Positions 24,001-30,000 of a DNA stretch of 64,000 nucleotides are shown here, one piece after another; positions within the stretch are counted from its first letter, which is position 1, and every line of letters starts with the position of its first letter. The position numbers are program-made. This stretch comes from Candidatus Aenigmatarchaeota archaeon (GTDB lineage Archaea; Aenigmatarchaeota; Aenigmatarchaeia; CG10238-14; SCSR01), in assembly GCA_039090665.1 (NCBI GenBank), contig JAWCSL010000001.1, forward strand, positions 1 through 64,000. The letters are read 5' to 3'.

Positions 24001-27000
24001 TTATAATTTTTTCATTCTAACATTAACCTACTCTTGAAAACCCTTCTTGATTTCAAATCTTTCTATTTCATATAGTAGGTCAATCTATTGTTTTTTTCTG
24101 AAATTTCTGTTTTGAAAAATGGTAGCAAAGGCTTTAGCCTTTCTCTTAAATATTCTCCATAAAACCTTCCCTCGATTTTGGTTCCAGAATTCTCTGAAAA
24201 ATCTATCTTTTCACCTTCAATCACATAAAAGTCAATAAAACCTGCCGGATATTTCTGATAAATTTTTCTATATTCCTCGTAGGCCTTTTTAATTATCTCT
24301 AGTTTAAAGATTTTTTTCCTGTATTCTTCTGGCTTCTTGCTTAACTTGCCACTAATTTTGTAATGTTCTCTTGGATATTCCAAGTTTTCTATTTTCTTCA
24401 ATTCCTCTTTAAATGTCAAAAAGGCTTTATTCAAACCATACTTTACAAAATCTTCAATTATTTTTTCTTCAGCTTTTCTCACAACTATTGGATCTGACTT
24501 ACTTGCTCCCCTCCAACCTATTTTTATTATTCTTCCACTTTCTGTAGCCAACGCATGTTTTTTATCCAGGGGAATAAAAACATCTGTATGCTTATTATAG
24601 CCGGCCAATAAAGTCTTGTATTTTTCATTTAAATCTTTTGAAAAATTTCCTTGAATTTCAGAAATGAACATTCTTGACTTAAAAGGCGAAGAATAAATTA
24701 CTTTGCAGCCATCAAATTCTCTATTCAAATTTTTGTAAATTTCAGAAAAAATTTTTAAAAGTTTATCAGAAATATTTTCATCCGTATAAGTTTTTTTTCC
24801 AAAATAAAGACAAGCGCTCACACAGTTTATAGAAAAAGAATATGGATCGAATATAATATTTTTTCCATCTTCGTCCACACCGTAAACTTCTATTTCTTCT
24901 TTAAATTTAATCATTTTTTCGAAAACAGAAGAAATATATGGCCCAAAGAATTCTTGATTTTCTAAGATTACTTTGGGTGCAAAACCAACAAATGGATAAA
25001 CCCACTTTCCTTCTATTCTTTCTCCATAATTTTTTGTGAAAATTTTTTCATACGCTCTTATAATCCTTTCCTTTTCTTTTTTTAAACTAGTGTAAGATTT
25101 AGTTATTTTGGGAAAGATTTTGTTCTGAACAAACTCAGAATTGAGAATAGCTTCACCTATATCTTCCATGACTTTTGAAAAAACGTTTTTAATGTCAATT
25201 GAATACAAAATTGGTAGAGCCAAAAAACCCAAATCAAACAATAAAAATTTACTAAGCTTCAAGTGAGCTTCGGCATCTTGAGAATTGTGAATTATTGTTT
25301 CAACAATTTCTTCTTTAAAATTATGCACATCTAAAGAATCTCTTATTTTATTGTAAATCTCGAAGTTTTTATAATCAGTTTTTTTAAGGGTTTTTTTATC
25401 TCCTAAGAAAAATTCTAACATATCCTCAAGGCTTCTTATTTCTGGATGCAAAAACTTGCAAGTGTAAAGAGAATCTTCAGAAGGAATTATACCTTCAGAT
25501 GTCACAATTTGTATCGTTGGTATAAATCTGTAATAAACTCTAATATCAAACTTATCTGTTGGTCTTTCTTTTATTGATGGAAATGCTTCGCGATCTTTAT
25601 GTTTTTCGAGAATTGAAGAACCATGAATAATTTCTATATCTGCTTTCTTTCTGTATTCATAAATTTTTCTAATCAATGTCTTTTCATCAGGAACTATTTC
25701 GATATCAATTCCATAAGGTTTTAAAACTTTCTTGAAATCATCCAAGAGTTTTTGATTCTCATTTACTACAAGTGTTTTTGAAAAACCGTCACTACTTTTG
25801 ACAGTAGCAATTACTATCTTTCCATTGGAAGTTTCATAATCGACTGTGAATAAAACCAACTCCTTTTCCAATTCTTTAAGTTGTTTAATTACATCTTTCC
25901 TATTTTCTGGAAAATCTTGAGAAAATTTAATTAGCTTTCTATCTTTTCCACATTCCTCATAACATAAGCGTGTTTTTAGATAATAACCAATTTTTTTAGA
26001 AAAAACTTCTTTTTCTAATTTTGAAAGGAAATGTTCTTGTTTTCTTGAATCCGAGACCCTATCTTCTATCCCAATTATTCCTTGAATCGAGTTAAGTTTA
26101 AGTTTCAACTCTTCCATTTCTCTTCTTTTCCCTTCAAAATAAAAAGATATCAGAGAAGCTTTCTTTGGGTTCATCATGTTGTAAATTACATCATCAATAA
26201 CTAGCAAATCCTCAAAATCTCCTAACTTTCTTATTTTTTCCAAAATTTCCTCCTTTTTTTCAGGATCAACAAAAACTCTAATTCTTTTCTTAAATTCTTC
26301 TTTGACCAAAAGAGGTTCTTTGTTTTTGAAATAAAAACAAACTTCATTTTTTCTTATGGCTATGCCTATCGGCCCATAAACATCAATTTCTTTCATAAAA
26401 TCTACAAAATGACTTAAATATTTAAATTCTATTTGAATTTTTATGCTGAAAATTAGTTTTACTTCGAGCAAAAGAGTGATAAGAAATCTTTTGGAAGTCG
26501 AAGGTCCACGCTTATATTGTCTTGCAGTTGACACTTTCAAAGGAGAATATGATAAAAATCTTGCTTTATCTACGTTGGAATTCTTAGAAAAAGAGTTATA
26601 CTCGAGAAAAGAAAAAGTTGAATTCTTGAGAAATTTGAATGAAGAAATAAAAAAATTTGAACTTAAATCACCAATTGTCTTATACACTGAAAATTCTTAT
26701 CCTTATTCATATTACTTTAGAAGAGAAAAAGAAAGAATAGTTCCAATAAAAAACATAAGAGGTGTTCCACTTGAAAATACAGAATGGATACCCAAGACTT
26801 ATGAAGACTTGAGCTCTAGAATTAATCCTTCTCTAGACATTCTTTACAAAATAATAAACTCTTACAGAAAGGGCAATAAGCCACTGAATTCGATCATGAC
26901 TATAGTCCTAGTTACACCTATAGGTCTAATTCCATTCAGTTGCAAAAATTTTGAACCATTGATAAAAATTCAACCGTTTTCAATTATTGATGTAACTAAT

Positions 27001-30000
27001 TACGAGGCTGTAGAAAAATGGAGCAGAAAAATAAGATTAAGATCAGAATTAATGGGTGAAATTCCTCCTAAAGATTCTAATTTAGAGGCCACAGCATTTG
27101 AGTTATATTATAACGGAAAAACCAAACCAATAACCTGGGGAAAAATTGAAAAAATTTGTAGCAAGATTCTACTTCGATATTTTATAAATCAGGCAGAAGA
27201 TTTTATACAAAAAAATACACAACAAACAGCAATTCTATTTTTCACAGGCAAAAAATATTTGAATGAGTTTAGAAGAGTTCTTGAGGAGTACAGACTTTAT
27301 AATCCGAAATTGGACATAACAAAAGAGTTTTTAAAAAAGCATGCTGGAGATAAAGAATATATGTCATGGGGATTAGGCAGTTCAAATTTAATTGGATATT
27401 ATTCTACAGATGTATGTGGTGTGAGAAAATTTTATCCAGGAAAACTAGAAAGAACTATCAGGGATATTGAAGGAATAGAAAGGGGTGAAATTGTTTACAA
27501 TTCTTCATTGCTAGGTACTCCACCAAGAGATAGAAAATTGCTAAGGTTTTTCGAAATTTGGTTTGATGAAGATTTCAACAAAGAAGAAGTTTATGCCAAG
27601 CCTGTGGAATGTAAAAGAGGCAGTATTTTTTTTGATTTCAATGATAAAAATCTTTGCAGTTCTGAAAAATATTTAGAATGGAAAAAAAGACAAAAAGAAG
27701 AAGATGTGCAAGAATTAGAAAGATTCGTAAGAATTACAAATCCTCTGCAGCAATGGACAGGAATTGTCCAATTAATTCAAGAAAAAATAAAAAAAGAAAT
27801 TTATCCTCTTGATTTAAATAGTAAAGTAAGAGAAGATGGATCTTATGATTACTCTTTCAGTAAATTTAACAAAACTCCTCTGGAGAATGCTTTAGAAGAT
27901 TTGGGTTTAACAAGAGAGAAAGAAACGGAAGAAGTGGTAACAGCCTTAGGAATAAAATCCACACTACAAAAACTCGCCAAAATTGGAAAACTAATCCACG
28001 ATGCCAGAAGATTTTGTACGATAAGTAAACAAAACTTAATTAACTCCACAGAAGTACCACTCCTCTTAAGCATTGGAAATTATACCTATGGTGATTTCAA
28101 AATATTTGGGATTGTGGATTTTTTAGGAAGAACAGAAGATGGTAAATGTCATATTTGTGATACAAAATTGGAAGCGTCTTTTTCACCTACTAGAGGTCAA
28201 AGATACCAAGTATTAGCAGCAGGTATGGCAATCGAACAGAATTACAATATACGCTTCGATAGCGGAAGCAATTATTATCATACTAGTGTTTTTAGAGAAG
28301 GCATTCTTTTTACTTATTCCTATTTCCCACAAAAAATTCCGGATATTGTGAATGATATGATAGAACAAGTTTACGACTATCATAGAATCATGGATTGTAT
28401 AAATTCAAACAATCTAAATCGTATACCGGAATACTTTAAAAAATATTTTATGAGCAAAAAGAGGATGGTAAAGACAGAAAGGTTAGAAAATGTGAGAAAA
28501 ATTATAGAAGAGAAACTTTGTGTCCAAGTTTAAAAATTCACATTTTTTCCAAAGGCTTAATTCCAAGCAATTCAAGAGCTTGACCCAAAACAATTTTTGT
28601 TGCTTTCACTAGAGTGAGCCTGAAATTTCTCTTCTCTTCACTTTCAGCTTTAAGCACAGGATTTGTTTCATAAAACCTGTCAAAAACATTGGCAAGTTCA
28701 TAAACATAATTGCAAATATAATGTGGTTTTAAATCTCTTCCAGCATCTCCCACTACTTTTTCAAATTTCATCAAAGTTTTTATTAACTCTTTTTCACTTT
28801 CACTAAATTCCCTTACTTTGAACTTCAGTTTGAATTTCCCAGCTTTCCTCAATATTCCAGCACACCTTGTGTGAGCATATTGTAAGTAGGGGCCAGTGTC
28901 TCCTTCAAGCTTGAGCATTTGTTCCCAATCAAAAGTTATTGTTTTTTCTGGTTCAATTCTCACAATAGCATATTTCAAAGCCCCAATTCCTATAGCTTCA
29001 GCAATTTCTCTCTTTTCCTTTTCCGAAAACTTTCCTTTTCTTTTTTCAATTTCCATGTAAGCCATTTCTACAAGCTTATTGACAACTTCATCCAGCATCA
29101 CAGCTCTACCTTCTCTAGAAGACATTTTTCCTTCAGGCAAGCGAACAAGATCAAAAGAGAAGTGTTTGCAGTTTTTTACCCACTTATAACCGAGTAATTC
29201 CAAAATCTTGAAGAGCTGTTTGAAGTGCAATGTTTGTTCATTTGAAACAACCCACACATGCTTGTCAAGTTTATACTTTTCAAATCTATGAACAGTCATA
29301 CCTAAATCGCTTGTTATATATAGGCCAGTGCCGTCAGATCTCAACAAAATTGTGTCGGGCAATCCAAATTTTTCTAGTCTTGAAACAACAGCACCATCTT
29401 CTGTTTTTCTCATGATCTCTTTCTTTAAACCTTCTTGAATTATTTTCTTTCCTAGATCTCTGAAATCGCTCTCATAAAAGTAAACATCAAAATTTATCCC
29501 AAGTCTACGATAAGTTTCTTCAAAACCTTTGACACACCAATTCACAATCTCCTTCCATATCTTTTTCAATTTTTTGTCTTTTTCTATTTCAAATTTTCTC
29601 AAGTTTTCCCTTGCTTTTTCTTCTAGGCTTGGATCATTTTTTGCTTCTTCATGGAACTTGACATAAAGATTCCATAACCAAACATCAGGCTTTCCGTTTG
29701 GTTTTTCTCCTTTTGCCCAAGTTAAGTAAGCCGTGACAAGCTTTGCAACTTGAAGACCAACATCATTCATCAAATTAGCTCTTATCACATCATAACCCAA
29801 AAATTCTAGAATTCTTGCAAGCGAATCTCCAAGAAAAGTTCCTCTTGCGTGTCCTATATGCATCGAGTGCACAGGATTGGGTTGTGAAAACTCTATCATT
29901 ACCCTTTCTTTTTTCTTTGCTAACTTCTTCTTCTTCATCACTTTCTTCAAAACAAGCTCGGAAATTTTTTGATAATCAAAAAAGAAATTAAGGTATCCAG

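Follow-up and report, generated by a model that had tools for sequence, protein, structure and literature searches.

Two divergently transcribed genes, g00028 and g00029, lie between rpoK and argS in one genus of Aenigmatarchaeota. At what we judge to be about an even chance, they are a co-regulated accessory pair of DNA-end-processing nucleases fixed at that position. By its sequence profile, g00028 is a strongly diverged paralogue of the family-B DNA polymerases (PolB) and the third PolB copy of this genome; it appears to be polymerase-dead with its exonuclease kept. The partner, g00029, ends in a nuclease domain of the Cas4/RecB type. Both were studied within a window of 64,000 nucleotides from contig JAWCSL010000001.1, and their features are collected in Table 1.

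Table 1. Features of the g00028/g00029 locus
Feature	Positions	Strand	Details and basis
g00028	24063-26396	-	777 aa; ORF and PolB profile matches
g00028 predicted exonuclease domain, residues ~171-395	25212..25886	-	hhalign -glob, MAFFT, BLASTP
g00028 degenerate motif B/C, KxY-like strand and thumb, residues 516-735	24192..24851	-	profiles, hhalign, MAFFT
g00028 C-terminal PIP-box-like motif N769-N-R-L-T-Y-Y-M776	24069..24092	-	alignment of relatives
Divergent intergenic region, 46 bp	26397..26442	.	holds palindrome TTAAATATTTAA at 26414-26425
g00029	26443-28533	+	696 aa; ORF and 5-6 relatives
g00029 predicted PD-(D/E)xK (Cas4/RecB-like) domain, residues ~450-696	27790..28530	+	PADLOC, TIGR00372, Atlas structure rows

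The locus and its surroundings

Both open reading frames called by the first-pass annotation are real, and the flanking genes, which it had described as housekeeping, are rpoK (Rpb6) and argS. Its remark that no integrase or Cas1 lies nearby holds for the 77 ORFs scanned in the window, among which there is no transposase either, and in place of terminal repeats the locus has only AT-rich noise. The host has been described as a tiny hot-spring archaeon and has a genome of 0.62 Mb. As observation, that annotation was borne out on the ORFs, their relatives and the flanks, and as interpretation on the PolB homology, the nuclease, the existence of a unit and its rarity. Its placing of motifs A and C and the supposed invisibility of the group to sequence methods did not survive, and the idea of a relic agrees poorly with the data.

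g00028, a diverged family-B polymerase homologue

No curated family covers g00028, as had been reported: Pfam gives no family at E<=10, DNA_pol_B included, and NCBIfam, PADLOC and PHROGs give nothing. Sequence methods do not, however, miss the group altogether, since archaeal PolBs in the PDB are reached at E 3e-6 to 2.5e-5. Of the profiles, which were built from eight to nine relatives, A1 matches the Pfu, Pab, Tgo and KOD PolB structures at E 2.5e-5 and A3 a solved archaeal PolB at E 3.2e-6 (profile positions 523-713 on chain residues 487-686). When A1 was run against 1.84e9 representatives, six proteins were returned at E<=1e-3, five of them family members and the sixth a canonical, intein-bearing PolB. 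Comparison with 32 canonical PolBs by hhalign extends over 234 columns (E 5.8e-4; g00028 residues 522-772) into the C-terminal 'D..YY..Q..P' region, and BLASTP aligns g00028 colinearly with the genome's own PolB at ~20% pairwise identity. Residues 1-185 and 385-535 show no PolB similarity by profile. The profile matches, independent of structure prediction, support the homology to PolB; together with the motif states described below they uphold the earlier view of a diverged, catalytically altered homologue.

The domain order is colinear with that of canonical archaeal PolBs, both the Thermococcales enzymes of the PDB and the PIP-bearing PolB on contig C11 of this genome. Exo I, Exo III, the KxY strand, the thumb, the C-terminal 'D..YY' and the PIP-like box can all be aligned. 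Unlike the canonical enzymes, g00028 has no motif A Asp, motif B Lys or Tyr, or motif C DTD, and its N-terminal domain and palm-N/fingers are unrecognisable by profile.

These losses were followed in a joint MAFFT alignment of the 32 canonical PolBs with nine family sequences, with all motifs in register. The column of the motif A Asp is a gap in the family, and no member keeps the residue; at the ungapped position E462 is found in six of the nine sequences and K, Q or T in the other three. The Lys and Tyr of motif B are gone throughout the family. The canonical YGDTD pairs with Y568-S-S570-P571-F, where no acid is conserved, and neither motif C Asp occurs in any of the nine. A KxY-like strand (K612-K-H-A-L-A) can be recognised, and the acids D605, E619 and D635, on strands after motif C, are invariant. 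D308-S309-L310-Y311, once taken as motif A-like, falls inside the exonuclease domain as a 'GRxxxD(L/P)(F/Y)' element. D517, once taken as the sole invariant Asp near motif C, lies just ahead of motif B and is Ser in relative P0016.

The exonuclease domain aligns with that of canonical PolBs by hhalign -glob (E 0.003) with its motifs in register, and MAFFT and BLASTP agree. D186 and E188, already thought to be Exo I-like, fall on the Exo I DxE, while H370 and D374 align to the YxxxD of Exo III, which reads H370...D374...H378. Within the Exo II region, which includes H258-G259, the Asp column itself pairs with the non-acidic H266 in both hhalign and MAFFT, with D268 on one side of it and on the other E264, where two distant relatives have Asp. 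Among nine sequences of 28-55% identity, D186, E188, H370, D374 and D268 never change and residue 264 is always E or D, an invariance typical of a live active site. No other part of the protein is as well conserved as this domain, in which 32% of the columns are invariant in seven near relatives, against 16-23% elsewhere. It is because the Exo I and Exo III acids align and the residues of motifs A, B and C are absent that g00028 reads as polymerase-dead but exonuclease-keeping, and a 3'-5' exonuclease activity is predicted for it.

The C-terminus carries the pattern [ND]xx[LI]TxY[MF] in all seven near full-length relatives, and only six of the genome's 604 ORFs, canonical PolB and Nre among them, end in such a motif. 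N or D stands where the canonical PIP box has Q, and the last residue is often M. The tail may serve to bind PCNA.

g00029, the putative partner nuclease

g00029 likewise belongs to no curated family, the only Pfam match being HTH_26 at E 0.15 and PHROGs giving none. The Cas4 match reported on residues 513-619 was reproduced (PADLOC, E 0.002). TIGR00372 also matches (E 0.0076), though its 16.1 bits fall far short of the 65-bit cut-off, and the Atlas structure rows for residues 450-696 are all PDDEXK_1/Cas4 clusters. These results support the Cas4/RecB-like PD-(D/E)xK domain first proposed; the g00029 profile had no match in the PDB. As in nucleases of the Cas4/RecB family, the C-terminal ~200 residues carry an E...D...(D/E)xK...Q pattern, here E537, D559, D573-T-K575 and Q589, with D573 replaced by Asn in one of six relatives (the G024 C4 copy). 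g00029 is accordingly a putative nuclease. It differs from Cas4 in its low score, in an added N-terminal part of 450 residues and in having no CRISPR context. Cas4 has a four-Cys cluster pattern, and none was seen in the g00029 alignment. The N-terminal ~450 residues are, as far as their sequence goes, lineage-specific and have no assigned fold.

The pair as a unit

The 12-mer palindrome TTAAATATTTAA is centred exactly midway between the start codons at 26396 and 26443. It is invariant in all four orthologous loci compared, while its flanks vary, and it is probably a shared bidirectional TATA box for leaderless transcripts of the two genes. A search for RNA runs that contain the locus found none. 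The order argS-g00029-g00028-(PrimPol)-rpoK is kept in four species-level lineages and six loci (G000, G024 C4, the near-identical JAWBPV and JAWCDI, JAWCEU, and G024 C9). In G162 a single deletion has removed both genes except for their 3' ends. Because they share an invariant promoter element, stay adjacent and were deleted jointly, the two genes form a unit, as had been proposed, and their products may form a physical complex. In G024 a PrimPol gene of the AEP group follows g00028 on its downstream side at a distance of 11 bp, and JAWCEU and G162 have such a gene as well; as this genome and JAWBPV/JAWCDI have none, PrimPol is not obligatory.

Distribution and evolution

The earlier counts of relatives, eight proteins for g00028 and five for g00029 with the query included, 44-55% identical and from Aenigmatarchaeota or unnamed, were confirmed; for g00029 the figure is 5-6 across searches. 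Two relatives had been placed on one 5.6 kb contig, and P0007 and P0011 do both list a longest contig of 5654 bp. In a sample of 201 genomes of the phylum, which included 41 of the same family, the pair was not found beyond genus g1, and the viral contigs searched hold no relatives. Intact, full-length ORFs occur in at least nine lineages. Between loci, identity is 47-55% for g00028 and 43-52% for g00029 against 72-82% for argS, and dN is 0.34, 0.48 and 0.11, respectively, with dS at 1.7-2.3. The family is thus as rare and fast-evolving as first described, moving 3-4x faster than argS, yet its dN/dS of ~0.2 means purifying selection.

Comparison with known systems

Archaeal PolB2 (Dpo2) is likewise a PolB paralogue present in addition to the replicative enzymes, fast-evolving and with substituted catalytic motifs; a repair role has been proposed for it, with partner proteins encoded alongside (PMC4104785). 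g00028 is the reverse case. PolB2 has lost its exonuclease motifs and kept one motif C Asp (PMC7544198), and the enzyme polymerises (PMC8764526), whereas g00028 has kept the exonuclease acids and has no motif C Asp. The partners differ too, being RadA-like proteins and arCOG07300 for PolB2 and a PD-(D/E)xK protein, with PrimPol in relatives, for g00028. A subset of the prokaryotic PolX enzymes, with an active PHP exonuclease but a dead polymerase site, follows the logic that would hold for g00028: the site for synthesis decays, and selection preserves the 3'-5' exonuclease (PMC12926913). g00028 is nevertheless of family B and not X, its exonuclease fold is DEDD and not PHP, and the relevant part of that source describes the PolX subset without a partner nuclease.

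The PolB-like gene, AEP PrimPol and nuclease of the relatives resemble PolB-bearing mobile elements such as casposons and pipolins. Unlike these, the pair has no Cas1, integrase, terminal repeat or active polymerase, and its chromosomal position is fixed. A PrimPol combined with activities that process 3' and 5' ends also recalls LigD, which has a PolDom and a phosphoesterase domain, but, unlike in LigD-type end-joining sets, neither a ligase nor Ku turned up beside the pair.

Alternative explanations

The pair, with PrimPol in some genomes, could instead be an antiviral or anti-plasmid defence in which the PolB-like protein senses or binds replication intermediates or DNA ends of foreign origin and the nuclease destroys the DNA. 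We think this rather unlikely, although divergence far above that of the neighbouring genes, presence that varies inside one genus, a very narrow distribution and a nuclease effector whose N-terminal region is large and variable all speak for it, and fast evolution with patchy loss fits defence as well as repair. PADLOC offers only the weak Cas4 match, no defence genes adjoin the housekeeping flanks, and Cas1 is 55 kb off and absent from G024, which carries the pair. Moreover, the four species-level lineages all have the pair at one place in the chromosome and not in a variable island, and the PCNA-box-like tail points to the host replisome. The same tail, and retention of the pair in so small a genome, would suit a non-catalytic structural or regulatory replisome subunit whose 'exonuclease' residues only bind, comparable to the inactive C-terminal half of eukaryotic Pol epsilon; essential inactivated PolB modules have precedent (PMC7544198, PMC4104785). 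This is improbable in view of the live-site pattern at D186, E188, H370, D374 and the Exo II-region acids, the loss of the pair from a close relative (G162) and its absence outside genus g1 in the 201 genomes sampled.

That g00028 still polymerises DNA or RNA by means of relocated or unconventional catalytic residues seems a little less probable again. PolB2, predicted inactive, proved a robust polymerase (PMC8764526), primer-independent PolBs are active although they lack the first Asp of motif C (PMC7544198), and the acids past motif C, with E462 in most members, might serve. Against this stand the lack of a conserved acid in either motif C Asp column, the substitution of E462 in a third of the sequences, the loss of the motif B residues and a polymerase half less conserved than the exonuclease domain. 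Least probable, by a shade, is that the pair has no present function and is decaying, as what is left of the replication module of an integrated plasmid or virus. Of the mobile-element origin first suggested, the gene set of the relatives, typical of such modules, stands in favour; repeats, integrase, Cas1, viral matches and a GC3 deviation are missing. Low GC (0.29 and 0.31, the 6th and 14th percentiles) would fit decay, as would losses such as the deletion in G162 and that of PrimPol from this genome, but GC3 is unremarkable (18th-19th percentile). The word 'relic' fits poorly with intact ORFs under purifying selection, an invariant promoter element and retention in a 0.62-Mb genome.

Proposed function

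In the end-processing reading that we favour, the pair may have been captured from the replication module of a mobile element, and both genes would be read outward from the one palindromic TATA element. The dead-polymerase scaffold of g00028, perhaps sitting on PCNA, would grip a primer-template or DNA end and trim the 3' strand while g00029 cuts or resects the other; in those relatives that have it downstream of g00028, PrimPol could then re-prime or fill in.

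Homology of g00028 to family B DNA polymerases

Both genes of the divergent pair, g00028 and g00029, are present as open reading frames where the first-pass annotation had put them (listed with their motifs in the table below). A longer, GTG-started frame for g00028, reaching position 26687, was rejected; it overlaps g00029 and is not conserved. Neither protein belongs to a curated family, as had also been reported: g00028 has no Pfam match at E<=10, g00029 has HTH_26 at E 0.15 and a weak Cas4 match, and NCBIfam, PADLOC and PHROGs gave nothing for either protein beyond that Cas4 match. 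The counts of relatives were reproduced in a word-indexed search of 5.8 billion clusters, eight for g00028 and five for g00029 with the queries included. These relatives show 44-55% identity and come from Aenigmatarchaeota where named. A scan of metagenome contigs returned the window's own sequence alone.

It had further been proposed that g00028 represents a PolB group missed altogether by sequence methods. This holds for single-sequence searches and for curated models, below all of which the family scores: g00028 does not reach the gathering score of PF00136 or PF03104, and in Pfam scans of nine family members DNA_pol_B_exo1 was matched by one (E 0.028) and DNA_pol_B by none. Profile searches, however, succeed. 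A profile of eight g00028 relatives (A1) finds the solved Pyrococcus and Thermococcus PolBs in the PDB at E 2.5e-5 (profile positions 561-709), and a second with two full-length distant members added (A3) does so at a better E value of 3.2e-6, with profile positions 523-713 on chain residues 487-686, a match that spans motif B to the thumb. A full HMMER pass of A1 over 1.84 billion representatives gave six proteins at E<=1e-3, comprising two near relatives, three distant members (P0016, 806 aa; P0017, 810 aa; P0018, a fragment) and one canonical, intein-bearing PolB (P0019, E 4.5e-4), which Pfam confirms (PF00136, E 5.7e-65). The distant relatives also include P0020, and one of P0016, P0017 and P0020 is encoded on a 58-kb contig. 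When the family was compared by hhalign with 32 canonical PolBs of the archaeal class, a match of 234 columns (E 5.8e-4) extended to the C-terminal 'D..YY..Q..P' region, and the exonuclease region gave a match (E 0.003) in which the motifs fall in register. BLASTP aligns g00028 colinearly with the genome's own PolB, residues 170-411 on 166-396, at 20% identity. The claim of complete invisibility is thus unsupported, since profile, hhalign and pairwise alignments all recover the PolB homology, and on its palm and thumb similarity g00028 is a family B DNA polymerase homologue.

A3, run by hmmsearch against the PolBs of the class, scores 13 bits at best, which points to no donor PolB lineage. The genome (620,606 bp, 15 contigs, 90.6% complete) carries two canonical PolBs. 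One is of the ~900-aa type with a Cys-rich C-terminal domain and fits the B6 group as described for Aenigmarchaeota (PMC7544198).

Features of the g00028/g00029 locus and sequence motifs of g00028 beside their canonical PolB forms
Feature	Window position	Strand	Canonical form	Description, or form in g00028
g00028	24063-26396	minus		777 aa ORF
Palindrome TTAAATATTTAA	26414-26425			In 46-bp g00028/g00029 spacer
g00029	26443-28533	plus		696 aa ORF
Exo I			F/L-D-x-E	TVD186-Y-E188
Exo II region			DPDxIxxYNxxxFD	D253-I-E-I-I-H258-G259-S-S-I-L-E264-K-H266-K-D268
Internal exo-domain element			GRxxxD(L/P)(F/Y)	IPSE-D308-S-L-Y
Exo III			Y-x-x-x-D	H370-N-S-Q-D374; Tyr position is His370
Motif A			SLYP (DxxSLYPS)	Family W-(V/I)-Y467-P468; Asp column gapped 9/9 (MAFFT)
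Motif B			Kxxx-N-S-x-Y-G	Family S-F-S-I-N524-C-V-S-A; Lys and Tyr lost
Motif C			Y-G-D-T-D	Y568-S-S570-P571-F; conserved acid 0/9
KxY strand			KKRYA	Family K612-K-(H/Q)-A-(L/I)-A

Polymerase and exonuclease motifs

To read the motifs, nine g00028 family members were aligned together with the 32 canonical PolBs by MAFFT L-INS-i; the outcome is concordant with the HMMER and hhalign alignments. The polymerase centre of g00028 is predicted to be dead, as motifs A, B and C all fail the canonical residues. In motif B, the Lys column holds Ser or a gap, the Asn is kept in seven of the nine, and the Tyr has become Ser or Cys. In motif C, all nine have S or N in place of the first Asp, and K, E, D, R or G stands in the column of the second. 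E462, the ungapped equivalent of the motif A Asp, is Glu in six of nine sequences and K, Q or T in the rest; the register here is the least secure of the motif calls, because residues 385-535, like the N-terminal 185, show no profile similarity to canonical PolBs by hhalign. The thumb and the KxY strand are conserved. Two earlier assignments have to be moved: D308-SLY, taken for motif A, aligns instead to an internal element of the exonuclease domain, and D517, which had been discussed under motif C, immediately precedes motif B and is replaced by Ser in P0016.

The exonuclease domain is the best-conserved part of the protein, with 32% invariant columns among seven near relatives vs 16-23% elsewhere. 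D186, E188, D268, D308, H370, D374 and H378 are invariant in all nine family sequences, and D186/E188 of Exo I and D374 of Exo III are in register with canonical PolBs. H266 occupies the Exo II Asp column and is flanked, at a distance of two residues, by invariant acids: E264 before it (Asp in P0016 and P0017) and D268 after it. The exonuclease acids are conserved across the family, and g00028 is a candidate exonuclease.

A further conserved element lies at the C-terminus: in all seven near full-length members [ND]xx[LI]TxY[MF] stops one to three residues short of the end. The PIP-box consensus is a C-terminal motif of the Qxx[LIM]xx[FY][FYW] type, and the genome's second canonical PolB (contig C11) terminates in QKKILSYFDKR. 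A relaxed PIP pattern within the last 14 residues is found in six of the 604 ORFs of >=100 aa in the genome: g00028, the C11 PolB, a Pfam-confirmed Nre protein (Nre being a PCNA-binding repair factor), and three others that are probable chance matches. The tail of g00028 may bind PCNA, which in this genome is a 249-aa protein encoded on contig C10.

The partner protein g00029

The C-terminal part of g00029 is a PD-(D/E)xK domain. Its Cas4 match covers residues 513-619 (PADLOC E 0.002), with 16.1 bits to TIGR00372 against a cut-off of 65 bits, and an alignment of six sequences places the catalytic motifs at E537, D559, D573-T-K575 and Q589. D573 is kept in five of the six and is Asn in the copy on contig C4 of G024, a relative's genome. 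The Atlas model of the protein matches clusters of the PDDEXK_1/Cas4/RecB type only, over residues 450-696. No match was obtained for the N-terminal 450 residues: a PDB search with the g00029 profile was empty at E<=10, per-member Pfam scans yielded no consistent family, and a second profile search recovered the same five proteins.

The catalytic PD-(D/E)xK pattern is common to Cas4 and g00029, but g00029 lacks the curated score, the four-Cys cluster and the CRISPR-cas neighbourhood. Cas4 carries an Fe-S cluster held by four Cys; the only invariant Cys in the nuclease domain of g00029 are C525 and C572, and neither a C-terminal Cys triad nor a four-Cys pattern was seen in the alignment. The sole Cas1 of the genome (PF01867, E 1e-94; C1 83536-84390, i.e. 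at 83.5 kb and outside the window) lies 55 kb from the pair. G024 is without Cas1, which was not found in the three other genus genomes searched.

A shared spacer, a fixed gene order and joint loss

The palindrome in the spacer is centred exactly midway between the start codons at 26396 and 26443. The 12-mer is unchanged in all four orthologous spacers, in which the flanking bases vary and beside which the proteins are only ~50% identical. In archaea the TATA box has its centre ~26 nt before the transcription start site, so each half-site would start transcription no more than 1-2 bases from its start codon. We infer from this spacing that the palindrome could be one element driving two leaderless divergent transcripts.

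Four species-level lineages share the order argS(-) g00029(+) g00028(-) rpoK(+). They are represented by six loci, namely those of this genome, of G024 on contig C4, of the near-identical JAWBPV and JAWCDI, and of JAWCEU with G024 contig C9. The last (5177 bp, with g00028, g00029 and part of argS) was rejected as a second copy in G024 and is likely mis-binned, its g00028 being 99.7% identical to that of JAWCEU, another species' MAG. At the corresponding site of the congeneric G162 only two relics are left, a 3' end of g00029 with two stops that adjoins argS and a 3' end of g00028 that matches the G024 protein at 63% identity across 35 aa. As only 3' ends remain, one deletion took the promoter and both 5' parts. 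The two genes are one unit, jointly inherited and jointly lost.

The argS of G162 (contig C17, 5724-7592) has only 40% identity to the argS of the genus, the others being 72-82% identical to one another, and its neighbours are at 75-87%; it may be a xenologous replacement of ArgRS beside the deleted pair. Other differences were noted around the locus. At 19880-22002, between the S9 and phosphoglucomutase genes, lie a free-standing LAGLIDADG_2 plus HTH_3 protein (307 aa) and an MFS transporter; they occupy the same place in JAWBPV and JAWCEU, where the LAGLIDADG frame is split or shortened, and no such matches were found between these genes in G024 C4 or G162. A 128-aa ORF at 31265-31651 holds the first part of the PGM_PMM_I domain only and may be what is left of a phosphoglucomutase paralogue after truncation; at the corresponding place in G024 lies a more extended paralogous match, at 34% identity, to the phosphoglucomutase of the window (its residues 9-395). 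A tRNA match at 35745-35851, which ARAGORN did not report, is 107 nt long against a model of 71 positions and so probably contains an intron. The SSU rRNA (38869-40605) and LSU rRNA (44179-47522) matches likewise exceed their models (1737 vs 1478 nt and 3344 vs 2987 nt), which suggests insertions or introns in both; the interval between them contains a tRNA (43787-43858) and, on the opposite strand, a gene for an H+-pyrophosphatase (40836-42851). At 60973-63428, neighbouring ORFs of 388 and 284 aa have NTP_transf_2/Pol-beta-like nucleotidyltransferase domains, with a 170-aa ORF without a family between them.

A primase-polymerase gene in relatives

In G024 C4, JAWCEU and G162, a gene of 501 aa lies downstream of g00028 on the same strand, starting 11 bp past the g00028 stop in G024. 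Its product (P0015) is an archaeo-eukaryotic primase-polymerase with an AEP core. Its Atlas features stand at 0.95 to DNA_primase_S and LigD_Prim-Pol clusters, its Atlas structure matches to LigD_Prim-Pol pass the bar for naming, the members have invariant acidic and His motifs, and one of three matches PF21686 (E 0.0063). The PrimPol profile also has weak matches (E down to 2.9e-10) elsewhere in the class, in 29 further genomes; the majority are frames of 415-460 aa that are taken to be PriS, and at least three adjoin PCNA. The hhalign comparison of g00029 with PrimPol gave nothing. The PrimPol gene is absent from this genome and from JAWBPV and JAWCDI, and a separate PriS-like gene is found elsewhere in all four genomes of the genus. 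PrimPol is thus an optional member beside g00028 and g00029.

Distribution and evolution

Among 201 sampled genomes of the phylum, A1 matched four: this genome, G024, the G162 relic and G147, where the match (20 bits, a 925-aa frame) is probably to a canonical PolB. The g00029 profile also matched four, one an unrelated 246-aa PD-(D/E)xK ORF. The absence of the pair from a further relative, G145, was not taken as informative; the region is probably unassembled, as no argS and no PGM gene could be found in that genome. In other genera, rpoK and argS lie near each other without the pair.

Pairwise identity among the lineages is 47-55% for g00028 and 43-52% for g00029, vs 72-82% for argS and 68-87% for rpoK. 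By the Nei-Gojobori method, dN between this genome and G024 is 0.34 for g00028, 0.48 for g00029 and 0.11 for argS; with dS at 1.7-2.3, near saturation, dN/dS is roughly 0.18, 0.21 and 0.065, respectively. These values indicate that both genes are under purifying selection and evolve 3-4 times faster than argS.

The first-pass annotation read the pair as part of a mobile element, having itself seen no integrase, Cas1 or terminal repeats nearby. The window ORFs scanned indeed contain no integrase, transposase or Cas1, the pair is surrounded by no repeats other than short AT-rich matches, and viral contigs scanned with profiles A4, A2 and A5 (the last for PrimPol) gave no relatives. The GC content of the pair is low (0.29 for g00028 and 0.31 for g00029, the 6th and 14th percentiles of 371 ORFs) and its GC3 unremarkable (19th and 18th percentiles). 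Casposons and other self-synthesising elements differ from the pair, for which Cas1 or integrase, terminal inverted repeats and an active PolB were not found and whose insertion site is instead constant in all four species-level lineages.

Function of the pair

The motif states, the conserved thumb and KxY strand, the tail, the PD-(D/E)xK domain of the partner, the shared element, the joint inheritance and loss, and the optional PrimPol are best explained if g00028 and g00029 form a two-protein DNA-end-processing nuclease on a PolB scaffold. With its exonuclease acids invariant, a purely structural role for g00028 is less likely. An unconventional but active polymerase is also less likely given the state of motifs A to C, although Dpo2, as described in PMC8764526, is a precedent that serves as a warning. 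Decay to a functionless relic has happened in G162, and for the pair as a whole it is the less likely explanation under purifying selection.

For a DNA-end-processing nuclease, our preference is a role in repair or fork rescue. Such a role fits the housekeeping genes that constantly flank the pair, its clamp-like tail and the absence of any defence-family match. These same points speak against action on foreign DNA, but the pair may have that role, with its fast evolution and patchy loss in favour. More tentatively, and with some doubt, g00028 may be a PolB turned PCNA-tethered 3'-5' exonuclease that forms one machine with the PD-(D/E)xK nuclease and, ancestrally, PrimPol: an undescribed DNA-end-processing system of ultra-small DPANN archaea, either end-joining or fork-repair-like or a replisome-linked device against plasmids and viruses, exapted from the replication module of a mobile element.

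Relation to known systems

Inactivated PolB paralogues are well established. PolB2 (Dpo2) has disrupted exonuclease motifs, a single motif C Asp and an operon with RadA-like and arCOG07300 partners (PMC4104785, PMC7544198), and PMC7544198 describes another inactivated PolB in the C-terminal half of Pol epsilon. Set against these descriptions of PolB2, the pattern in g00028 is reversed, the exonuclease acids being kept and no motif C Asp remaining; the genes beside it are g00029, rpoK and argS, and no RadA-like family turned up in the ORFs that were scanned. In PolX, cases of a dead synthesis site with a live exonuclease are reported (PMC12926913). A full-text literature search, supplements aside, found no description of the g00028/g00029 pair.

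The case is a caution for structure-first annotation, as a small profile suffices both for homology and for the correct motif register. In the best-studied inactivated PolBs, the dead site is that of the exonuclease. The g00028 family appears to have made the opposite trade, giving up synthesis and retaining its site for proofreading together with the thumb that binds DNA and a tail like those that bind the clamp, and the putative common promoter would hard-wire it to a second predicted nuclease. If the activity is confirmed, this would be a new route by which replication enzymes are recycled into tools of repair or defense, and it would help to explain how DNA ends are maintained in genome-reduced symbiotic archaea (0.62 Mb here).
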